Virus record (IMG/VR): IMGVR_UViG_2657244961_000008
Location: 1 to 43,067 of that record
Strand: one strand, 5' to 3'
Length of the DNA: 43,067 bases
DNA from: a virus
Lineage: Duplodnaviria; Heunggongvirae; Uroviricota; Caudoviricetes
The notes beneath the pieces were generated by a model, which was not told the origin of the DNA, ran no database searches, and was given only the letters and a program-made list of their open reading frames with translations. Of the stretch, positions 26,737-28,448 are shown in pieces; within the stretch, counting starts at the first letter, position 1; each line of letters begins with the position of its first letter. Position numbers and translations under genes: made by a program.

Positions 26737-26745
26737 TGCTTAATC
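26737..26745. repeat. IS10 target-site duplication, right copy (TGCTTAATC)
   Basis: Identical to 25399..25407. Confidence 0.85.
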
Positions 26746-26997
26746 CCCTTCATCCCAATAAAGACCTTTCGCGGCACAATGAGGACGGTAAGGATAGCAA
26801 TAACTTGCTCTGACGTTACCAACCAGCGTGCCACTTTCTTTGAATGCCTTATCTCCATTCTTGAGCTGTGATAAGGCATTTTCAAGCTCAGCTATAGCGA
26901 CAGCCATGTCTTCGCTTTCTACATACAGTGAAAAACCTTTAATGGGTGAACTCATGGTAAGTGGGATCATAGATATTTGATGATGGTGTGAATGCAT
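26740..26997 (-). CDS. small His-rich hypothetical protein downstream of the methyltransferase
   Basis: 85 aa from the ATG at 26997 (GGGAGG RBS 6 nt upstream), beginning MHSHHHQ; the track ORF starts at a GTG at 27042. Its stop lies inside the right target duplication. Confidence 0.45.
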   Translation of the reverse strand: MHSHHHQISMIPLTMSSPIKGFSLYVESEDMAVAIAELENALSQLKNGDKAFKESGTLVGNVRASYCYPYRPHCAAKGLYWDEGD

Positions 26998-27047
26998 AAA
27001 TAGCCTCCCAGTGAAAAAATTAGCGAATAAAAGCTCTGACACCAGAA

Positions 27048-28100
27048 TTATTCCCCCACCAGTTCACTTACCTCTTTCACCGTCTGGTTAAACCGCTCTG
27101 ACTCAAGCTCAACACCTAAGGCCCGACGCCCCAGCGCCATTGCTGCTTTTATTGTGGAACCGGATCCCATAAAAAAATCAGCAACCAGATCACCAGGTCG
27201 ACTACTGGCATTGATTATTTGCCTGAGCATATCCGCCGGTTTCTCACACGGATGTTTACCCGGGTAGAACTGAACGGGTTTATGCATCCAGACATCGGTA
27301 TAAGGCACGGAGACTGATACGGAGAAATAGCGCCGGAGAGATTTAAACTTATCCAGCAATTCAGAATATTTGCGATTCAGTGAATCATAAGATGCCACCA
27401 GCTGGTGGTGTGGTTGTTCCAGTTGTTGTTCCTGAAACTTCTCTGCCGCTATACGGGAAAACAGTGCCTGTAACTTCCGATAGTCAGCCTCATTCGGCAA
27501 CTGCCACTGACTGGCACCAAACCAGTGGGAAACCATATTTTTCTTACCTGTGGCTTCGGCAATTTGTTTTGCCGTTATACCCAGTTCGGCACGAGCATCC
27601 CTGAAATACGATATCAGCGGTGCCATTATGTGCTGTTTGAGTTCCCTTTCTTTTGCCGCATAGCCGTCATTTTTGGGCTGGTATGGCCCCTGATAATGTT
27701 CGGCAAACAGAATGCGCTCTGTTGCCGGGAAATACGCCCGCAGGCTTTCCTTGTTGCACCTGTTCCAGCGTCCTGACGGCTTCGCCCAGATAATGTGATT
27801 CAGCACATTAAAGCGTTCACGCATCATAATTTCGGTGTCAGATGCCAGGCGATGACCACAGAACAGGTAAAGACTTCCGGCGGGCTTCAGTACCCGCCAG
27901 AACTGCGCCAGACACTGGTCGAGCCATTTCAGGTAATCATCGTCCCCCTTCCACTGGTTATCCCAGCTCTCGGGCTTCACTTTAAAGTATGGCGGGTCTG
28001 TGACTATCAGATCGACAGAGTTTTCCGGTAAGGTCTGGATAAATTCCAGGCAATCAGCGTTGATTAACTCACAACTGGATATTTTTACAGTATTAGCCAT
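27048..28100 (-). CDS. DNA methyltransferase (N6-adenine/N4-cytosine class, beta architecture)
   Basis: 350 aa with an N-terminal DPPY catalytic motif and a C-terminal FxGxG (FFMGSGST) AdoMet-binding motif. Confidence 0.85.
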   Translation of the reverse strand: MANTVKISSCELINADCLEFIQTLPENSVDLIVTDPPYFKVKPESWDNQWKGDDDYLKWLDQCLAQFWRVLKPAGSLYLFCGHRLASDTEIMMRERFNVLNHIIWAKPSGRWNRCNKESLRAYFPATERILFAEHYQGPYQPKNDGYAAKERELKQHIMAPLISYFRDARAELGITAKQIAEATGKKNMVSHWFGASQWQLPNEADYRKLQALFSRIAAEKFQEQQLEQPHHQLVASYDSLNRKYSELLDKFKSLRRYFSVSVSVPYTDVWMHKPVQFYPGKHPCEKPADMLRQIINASSRPGDLVADFFMGSGSTIKAAMALGRRALGVELESERFNQTVKEVSELVGE

Positions 28101-28250
28101 AGATCAATAAGCGCTTCTCTGATAGGCTCATACCGCTTTTGCGCAAAGCAGATGGGCCTGAGGTTTGCTTGTGACCCCAACGCATGAGCAGATGGCTGGC
28201 AGGTGCCGCTAACACCCACCAGCCGCCCATTACCACAAATTAAAAAGCCT

Positions 28251-28448
28251 TCACTGCGGAAGGCGTCTGTAACAACCGAACTGATAATCTGCCAGACCCG
28301 CCATAACAAGCTGGGTCAGTATTAACTGGCAGCGTTCACGTGAAAGGTAAGTATTCTGCGCAATTTCCCCGACGGTCGCTGGTTCGGTGACACTTAATTC
28401 ATTAAATACCACTCTGGCAGTTTCGGTCATATCCTGCTGTTTTAGCAT
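28251..28448 (-). CDS. small hypothetical protein, possible winged-helix DNA-binding
   Basis: 65 aa from the ATG at 28448 (AAGGG RBS). The longer track ORF (to 28622) would span the tR' terminator, so the short form is preferred. Confidence 0.45.
   Translation of the reverse strand: MLKQQDMTETARVVFNELSVTEPATVGEIAQNTYLSRERCQLILTQLVMAGLADYQFGCYRRLPQ

Follow-up and report, generated by a model that had tools for sequence, protein, structure and literature searches.

The best-described relatives of the enzyme considered here are M.EcoGI and M.EcoGII, encoded by prophages of Escherichia coli O104:H4 C227-11. According to PMC5778455, M.EcoGII methylates adenine whatever the sequence context, is silent in the lysogen, is toxic when produced constitutively, and was cloned and found active without a small upstream protein; the same paper proposes that the enzyme helps the phage overcome restriction and names the enzyme of phage 1720a-02 as a close relative. 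Ancestral reconstructions throughout the clade stay non-specific, and one of them, Anc291, is by experiment an active non-specific enzyme (PMC11551740). Lysogens of O111 Shiga toxin-producing E. coli with two M.EcoGI/M.EcoGII homologues (~93% similarity) displayed no methylation signature or motif (PMC6602927). Here we describe a locus with such a gene in a lambda-like prophage, IMG/VR virus record IMGVR_UViG_2657244961_000008, a Caudoviricetes sequence of 43,067 nucleotides (nt) that is referred to, over its whole length, as the window. Between the genes for the antiterminator Q and the holin, a gene for a 350-amino-acid (aa) DNA methyltransferase is flanked by open reading frames (ORFs) of 65 and 85 aa, and a preliminary description of the window had grouped the three. 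The interval is best explained, with high probability, as three independent inserts: a cassette of the 65-aa ORF and the methylase, which would constitute a Q-dependent late anti-restriction unit; a rare pair of convergent genes, one of which is the 85-aa ORF; and an IS10 element. What carries this reading are the identities of the genes, their order, their co-occurrence in other genomes, the fold of the second gene of the pair and the anatomy of IS10.

The late region from Q to the lysis genes contains the following (bp, base pairs; E, expectation value):

28677-29498, minus strand: gene for the Q antiterminator (PF03589, E 1e-52)
28644..28671, minus strand: putative late promoter pR' (TTGATT, 16 nt, TGnTAAATT), directly after the Q stop codon
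28577..28596, minus strand: tR'-like intrinsic terminator, an 8-bp stem with 5 G-C pairs, then T7 (seven T)
28251..28448, minus strand: winged-helix-like protein of 65 aa (phrog_331), regularly found as upstream partner of the methylase
28247..28264, minus strand: second terminator-like hairpin, overlapping the 65-aa stop codon and followed by TTTTTAATTT
28101..28250, minus strand: conserved methylase leader of 150 nt, predicted from conservation and folding to be structured
27048..28100, minus strand: 350-aa beta-class N6-adenine DNA methyltransferase of the M.EcoGII family, by PF01555 and identity to M.EcoGII
23487-24750, minus strand: holin, lysozyme and Rz genes, downstream on the late strand

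The 350-aa ORF proved to be the intact DPPY/FxGxG methyltransferase for which it had been taken. It matches PF01555 (N6_N4_Mtase) over residues 29-341 (E 7.3e-43; 147.5 bits, with a cutoff of 26.7), is free of frameshifts, and its DPPY (residues 34-37, within TDPPYF at 33-38) and FMGSG (309-313) motifs align residue for residue with those of M.EcoGII. The order of its parts, with DPPY N-terminal, the target-recognition domain central and FxGxG C-terminal, is that of the beta class. Over the full length, 288 of 349 residues (83%) are identical to M.EcoGII and 303 of 348 (87%) to Anc291 (both sequences taken from the supplement of PMC11551740), and the recognition region, a four-helix domain at residues ~160-237, aligns with either without a gap. 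The 1720a-02 enzyme is likewise 83% identical, and those of SfV and mEp460 are nearer, at 93%. PADLOC places the protein among Type II methyltransferase models (MTase_II, E 3e-154); there is no solved structure of the M.EcoGII family, the nearest sequences in the PDB being other beta-class enzymes at E ~1e-22. M.EcoGIX, the first candidate identity of the enzyme, was rejected, as the papers show it to be plasmid-borne and single-strand-specific. As judged from its sequence, the window enzyme is an intact orphan methylase, a new allele of the known and characterised M.EcoGII kind; this particular enzyme would be expected to methylate adenine non-specifically, and an anti-restriction role is probable for it.

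No nuclease gene adjoins the methylase in the window, and no nuclease domain was found among its neighbours; in the relatives no nuclease is conserved, the one nearby being a GIY-YIG protein of phiP27 that is itself not conserved. Thus, the earlier remark that a restriction endonuclease partner is not to be seen stands, whereas the idea that it might have been displaced in related prophages found nothing to bear it out. The adjacent cognate endonuclease gene of a Type II restriction-modification system is lacking here.

The three ORFs lie where the preliminary description had put them, all on the minus strand and co-oriented with Q and with the holin, lysozyme and Rz genes. The G+C-rich hairpin between Q and the 65-aa ORF is kept, with changes in both arms, in SfV, phiP27, mEp460 and 1720a-02, and the SfV record annotates a terminator at the equivalent position; the hairpin and its T7 (28596-28577) fit tR', in agreement with the earlier placement of the ORFs in late orientation just past this terminator. 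A 123-aa ORF (28251-28622) was rejected as an alternative form of the 65-aa ORF, as it spans the tR' hairpin and the 65-aa start is used in all annotations. In this prophage the methylase lies behind Q, tR' and the second hairpin, an arrangement that points to expression at late times alone. The cassette would accordingly be transcribed only once Q has rendered RNA polymerase resistant to terminators, after induction; the enzyme would then methylate adenines, largely or wholly regardless of sequence, in the phage DNA under replication, and the packaged genome would thereby be shielded from many of the restriction systems of its next host, while silence in the lysogen would avoid the toxicity of genome-wide methylation.

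The two genes of the cassette travel together. When IMG/VR was scanned for an exact 18-mer of the methylase leader, 119 loci were returned; sufficient upstream sequence was at hand for 95 full-length methylases, and all but three of these (92/95) have a 65-aa-type ORF directly upstream. The order of small ORF, ~150 nt and methylase recurs in SfV (orf47/orf48), phiP27 (L23/L24), mEp460 (gp52/gp53), 1720a-02 and E. coli C311. Of 5426 complete E. coli genomes, 2868 carry the two-gene cassette, in at most seven copies each. It is a known and ordinary unit. The earlier statement that it is no standard part of the lambda Q-to-S interval is right for lambda, from which it is absent, and wrong for SfV, phiP27, mEp460, cdtI and many Stx2 (Shiga toxin 2) phages, in which it is a standard occupant of that slot.

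The 85-aa ORF has a different distribution. With phages and with most E. coli, DNA similarity ends 8 nt past the methylase stop codon, and neither the 85-aa gene nor the 170-aa gene that converges on it occurs at any of the 119 methylase loci. In every context examined, the 85-aa gene is abutted by this 170-aa gene with a 4-bp overlap: apart from C311, the pair was found in Providencia, Salmonella, a metagenome contig, Arsenophonus and Rac-like E. coli prophages beside trkG, and in four of five pair lineages (all except Arsenophonus) there is no methylase nearby. It is present in 7 of the 5426 complete E. coli genomes, and its G+C content is 39-41% as against 47-52% for the neighbours. The preliminary description had overlooked the convergent plus-strand gene, the IS10 that abuts the 85-aa ORF and the second terminator-like hairpin. 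The features of this part of the interval are:

26740..26997, minus strand: 85-aa histidine-rich protein (MHSHHHQ...), partner of the convergent DUF2441 gene
24893..25405, plus strand: 170-aa DUF2441 protein with an ADP-ribosyltransferase-like fold, opposing the late operon and convergent with the 85-aa ORF
24835..24892, plus strand: conserved region upstream of the DUF2441 gene (TGGCGA...TGATATCGTTAAATCGCCAAAAGTAACAA...GGAG), from cross-genus conservation
25408..26736, minus strand: IS10 of 1329 bp, with DDE transposase, inverted repeats, RNA-OUT and 9-bp duplication
25421-26629, minus strand: 402-aa DDE transposase of IS10 (PF01609)
26622-26691, plus strand: RNA-OUT (Rfam, 97 bits, E 3.5e-20)
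25399..25407, no strand assigned: left copy of the target-site duplication TGCTTAATC, containing the stop codon of the 170-aa ORF
26737..26745, no strand assigned: right copy of TGCTTAATC, containing the stop codon of the 85-aa ORF

The third insert is an IS10 by its length, transposase, terminal inverted repeats (imperfect), RNA-OUT and target duplication; the Prokaryotic Genome Annotation Pipeline (PGAP) names the sequence an IS4-like ISVsa5 family transposase. The corresponding allele of E. coli C311 (NZ_CP062204.1; 99% identical) is free of the element and has a single copy of the 9-bp target, and there the 170-aa and 85-aa genes converge with a 4-bp overlap, one TTAA carrying both stop codons. 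The element landed in this shared TTAA and duplicated it, which is why it has split the pair yet both ORFs are intact in the window. It sits within the late operon, between the methylase and the lysis genes, and its RNA-OUT/pOUT end is directed antisense into the methylase and 85-aa genes.

That the 85-aa ORF is a real gene is clear from its sequence. Its ATG has GGGAGG 7 nt upstream, its ratio of non-synonymous to synonymous divergence (dN/dS) is 0.09-0.39, and the cleaned family alignment has 27 invariant columns, including H6, a VESED patch and YPYRPHC. Most homologues are of exactly 85 aa, so that the 100-aa GTG call of PGAP in C311 is probably too long. The family is tiny, with 17 clusters among 5.8 billion proteins and 13 profile matches among 1.84 billion representatives; those of the 13 that are not family members are repetitive proteins matching over short stretches and were treated as spurious. 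No family was matched by hidden Markov models of Pfam, NCBIfam, PHROGs and PADLOC, and tblastn against 50,697 phage records returned nothing. The AlphaFold2 model is too poor for a fold search (pLDDT, the score predicted for the local distance difference test, 55).

Several points weigh against the three-insert reading and the late anti-restriction role of the cassette. The putative pR' matches the hexamers at 8 of 12 positions, was found by eye and lies under the threshold of the promoter scan; in some alleles the second hairpin has a weak T-tail; a literature search found no report of virion-DNA methylation after induction for any member of the methylase family; and 83% identity to M.EcoGII does not prove the same non-specific behaviour. 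Further, the convergent pair adjoins an M.EcoGII-like methylase in two divergent lineages, E. coli and Arsenophonus, and a distant DUF2441 gene adjoins a Dam-like gene in Klebsiella phage KP12, so that a functional tie of DUF2441 genes to adenine methylases keeps a slight probability. Because about half of E. coli genomes have M.EcoGII-type genes in this slot, adjacency by chance is the simpler explanation. In the Arsenophonus nasoniae prophage (L011 3781-5779) an 89-aa/DUF2441 pair lies directly upstream of a methylase that is 55% identical, in the reverse of the E. coli gene order and without a 65-aa ORF; this prophage also has a Dam-family gene and a C5 methylase.

In the window, the neighbours follow one another in the order Q, 65-aa ORF, methylase, 85-aa ORF, IS10, DUF2441 gene and holin. 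The gap that separates the 65-aa ORF from Q is a variable slot that is empty in the window and is occupied by the gene for the GIY-YIG nuclease family protein in phiP27 (L010 4088-5317), by one for an ORF6N-domain protein in C311 (L001 6637-7200) and by one for a 138-aa hypothetical protein in mEp460 (L008 4076-4492). The Q protein of the window is of 273 aa, with a DnaJ-type CXXCXGXG zinc-finger segment preceding the Antiterm domain. C311, SfV and phiP27 share the methylase cassette and carry quite different Q proteins, which suggests that the cassette moves independently of Q type.

The upstream partner of the methylase was assigned to phrog_331 (E 1.4e-37), so that of the two small proteins profile searches placed this one and left the 85-aa protein without a family. 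Among ten members of its family, Pfam winged-helix models were matched consistently, TrmB by 10/10, DprA_WH by 8/10 and MarR_2 by 7/10, all under threshold: the window protein scores 18 bits with TrmB, for which the cutoff is 25.6, and the best of the DprA_WH matches is at E 3.5e-5. No sequence in the PDB matched it under E 0.1. The earlier suggestion of a winged helix is therefore a fair one, at the strength of a possible assignment. The coding signal of both small ORFs, on which their reality had been made to depend, is present; for the 65-aa ORF dN/dS is 0-0.09 against close alleles, and 0.03 at a synonymous divergence (dS) of 0.96 against the SfV allele, which for a comparison of alleles indicates strong purifying selection. 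Its N-terminus and the segment RCQLILTQLV-AGL, the putative recognition helix, are near-invariant even in the mEp460 allele, which is only 52% identical.

Between this ORF and the methylase stand the second hairpin, with two compensatory pairs in the mEp460 allele, and the leader, which always has a hairpin directly before it. The leader is predicted to fold into a long hairpin followed by a stem that joins the 12 nt 5' of the ATG to an upstream GGTCACAAGC (minimum free energy -69.5 kcal/mol, z -2.5), and the methylase start has no clear Shine-Dalgarno sequence. Identity of the leader between alleles is 76-98%, often above that of third codon positions of the flanking genes; 44 distinct leaders show covariation at 2-3 pairs, the informative pairs being few partly since an exact 18-mer of one arm of the main hairpin had served to retrieve the loci. 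The leader accompanies the methylase even at loci where the 65-aa ORF is replaced. No Rfam family was matched in either of the two leaders, the sole match being RNA-OUT of IS10. A 47-aa GTG ORF (28093-28236, minus strand) that ends 8 nt into the methylase was considered as a conserved leader peptide and rejected, being frameshifted and shorter in the SfV and mEp460 alleles; its sequence makes a conserved peptide improbable, and it may be a regulatory upstream ORF.

A tentative reading of these features, to which we would give somewhat less than even weight, is that the 65-aa protein controls the methylase by binding its leader, as DNA or RNA, and so times or limits a toxic enzyme, by analogy with the unmasking of the mom start codon by Com in phage Mu or with the controller proteins of restriction-modification systems. 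The near-obligate pairing, the almost invariant putative recognition helix and the conserved leader, with its paired nucleotides before the ATG and no good Shine-Dalgarno sequence, all speak for such control, as does the deleterious effect of constitutive M.EcoGII. They are to be set against the absence of homology to Com or controller proteins, the sub-threshold standing of the winged helix itself, the activity of cloned M.EcoGII without the small protein, the 3/95 loci without a small ORF, the thin covariation of the leader, and four IMG/VR loci in which the 65-aa ORF is followed by a regulator of the AraC type rather than by the methylase. In these four (L035, L073, L099 and L118) a 237-aa ORF, judged by eye to be the AraC-type regulator, comes after the 65-aa ORF and the first hairpin of the leader, and the mosaic joint falls inside the leader; an ORF resembling, again by eye, the Stx-phage esterase NanS-p is also present, and in L099 and L118 the 65-aa ORF is frameshifted to 79 aa.

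The 170-aa protein of the convergent pair belongs to DUF2441, going by its sequence profile and its modelled fold. The current Pfam copy gave no match to DUF2441 even at E 10, and membership was thus established through 2AUA (BC2332), a solved member of the family, which is matched by a profile of 80 homologues at E 5.6e-13; almost every full-length homologue carries a precomputed PF10386 assignment. AlphaFold models the protein with confidence (pLDDT 96.2), and the fold matches the ADP-ribosyltransferase toxins DarT, RES, ParT, Arr and Rhs, in keeping with the placement of DUF2441 in the ADP-ribosyl clan by Pfam (PMC7955679). D7, E70, R73, R83, D122, Y142, W143 and E155 are invariant in the family and H119 nearly so; we could not match these residues to a catalytic triad of the H-Y-E or R-S-E type in the NAD pocket. 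The few papers that mention the family give no function for it.

The 45-60 nt upstream of this gene are kept across E. coli, Salmonella, Providencia, Arsenophonus and the metagenome contig. As dS of the gene itself is ~1 or more in most between-genus comparisons, this conservation suggests a regulatory region of its own on the anti-late strand, likely a promoter, operator or 5' untranslated region, although no promoter upstream of the gene passed the scan threshold. The element holds an inverted repeat, TGGCGA...TCGCCA.

More distant DUF2441 genes occupy similar moron or defence spots: one lies beside RelBE and integrase in Gordonia phage JuJu, and that of KP12 lies between the Dam-like gene and the holin. 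At one plain chromosomal site the gene stands alone. A distant clade (43-48% identical) has another conserved convergent small ORF, of 70-72 aa (MSDTYQITLTTQTGETF...), which abuts the DUF2441 gene in an Enterobacter prophage (L016 4517-4729) and is ~175 bp off in L014 (1202-1420); a profile-profile comparison of this ORF with the 85-aa family revealed no relationship.

Our working model, which we hold to be somewhat less likely than not, is that the 85-aa and DUF2441 genes make up a toxin-neutraliser or prophage defence unit, in which the ADP-ribosyltransferase-like protein, expressed from a promoter of its own in the lysogen, would act on an invading phage or on the host, and in which, during lytic growth of the prophage, late transcription antisense to the DUF2441 gene and the 85-aa protein as an inhibitor would hold it in check. 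The 85-aa and paired DUF2441 families are strictly coextensive, the 4-bp overlap of stop codons is kept in at least five lineages and both genes are under purifying selection; the resemblance to toxins, the opposite strand with its conserved upstream region, and the typical lysogeny-expressed moron or defence spots of distant relatives (JuJu and the Enterobacter prophage) point the same way. On the other hand, PADLOC matches neither protein, the invariant residues of the DUF2441 protein could not be matched to a catalytic triad, the structure model of the 85-aa protein is poor, no function of DUF2441 is on record in the literature and a DUF2441 gene is also met by itself at a chromosomal site. 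The convergent orientation is moreover atypical for toxin-antitoxin pairs: those of Type II are co-transcribed and have an antitoxin of a known family, whereas the genes here converge and the 85-aa protein has no family. Any function of this pair, as of the 65-aa protein, is one that we infer. Potential for novelty lies only with the uncharacterised pair, the methylase itself being known; that both halves hold together, as an undescribed two-gene prophage system (a lysogen-expressed effector with late antisense transcription and a late-made inhibitor) alongside a separate Com/mom-like gate of the methylase, we consider unlikely.

The cassette had also been proposed to be an orphan anti-restriction or an epigenetic module. 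The former agrees with the literature proposal for the family; the latter, in the form of a sequence-specific or lysogen-active epigenetic regulator, is very improbable. Some PGAP annotations do name close homologues site-specific DNA-methyltransferase, and 17% of residues differ from M.EcoGII, but homologues of M.EcoGI and M.EcoGII at ~93% similarity leave no motif in lysogen methylomes, the ancestral reconstructions are non-specific throughout the clade, and the gene lies behind two terminator-like hairpins in a Q-dependent unit. Lastly, that the three late-strand genes form one orphan methylase module with the small proteins giving specificity or regulation is barely credible, for although they are contiguous, co-oriented and closely spaced, and the Arsenophonus prophage too has the pair beside an M.EcoGII-like methylase, co-occurrence already contradicts it (0/119, with four lineages carrying the 85-aa gene without a methylase), the homology of the common cassette ends just past the methylase, and specificity partners are unlikely to be needed by a family in which M.EcoGII alone methylates adenine in any context.

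On the three-insert reading, the value of the methylase lies mostly in the tidying of annotation, PGAP labelling it 'DNA-methyltransferase' or 'site-specific DNA-methyltransferase' in about half of E. coli genomes. The gating of a toxic enzyme of the M.EcoGII type is unstudied even though the enzyme is a widely used reagent, and the two terminator-like hairpins, the conserved leader and the conserved 65-aa partner are candidate elements of it. The more useful lead is the DUF2441 protein, strictly paired with a tiny orphan protein over several enterobacterial genera and sitting at a prophage position where toxin and defence genes are known to reside: should it prove to be a toxin or defence unit that brings its own self-immunity, it would represent a new family among ADP-ribosyltransferase-based systems.

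Set beside known systems, the locus shares with Type II restriction-modification a methylase that matches the PADLOC models for such systems, and differs in that an endonuclease is absent here and not conserved in relatives, and in the non-specificity of the M.EcoGII family. The transposable element agrees with IS10/Tn10 in its 1329 bp, 402-aa DDE transposase, RNA-OUT and a 9-bp duplication near the target preference, the consensus of which is NGCTNAGCN; its position alone is unusual, coinciding exactly with the stop codons that two convergent genes share. For the DUF2441 pair the systems to be compared are those with toxins of the ADP-ribosyltransferase fold, namely DarTG, RES-Xre, ParST and MbcTA. 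In phage Mu, mom is preceded by the small ORF com, whose product Com unfolds the hairpin in the leader by which the mom start is hidden. The same outline of a small ORF, a structured leader and a toxic modification enzyme may be seen here, as a hypothesis by analogy, in genes that have no sequence relationship to Com or Mom and that belong to a different type of phage and a different genome position. With M.EcoGII and M.EcoGI, as described in the passages of PMC5778455 consulted, which discuss neither the leader nor the 65-aa ORF upstream, the window enzyme has in common its size (349-350 aa), beta-class order, 83% identity, prophage location and orphan state; it differs as another allele, nearer to those of SfV and mEp460, with an activity that is predicted. 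Similarly, Hia5 and its relatives, non-specific adenine methyltransferases in Mu-like prophages (PMC3299994), parallel the cassette as phage-borne enzymes of broad modification for anti-restriction that are kept off until late.

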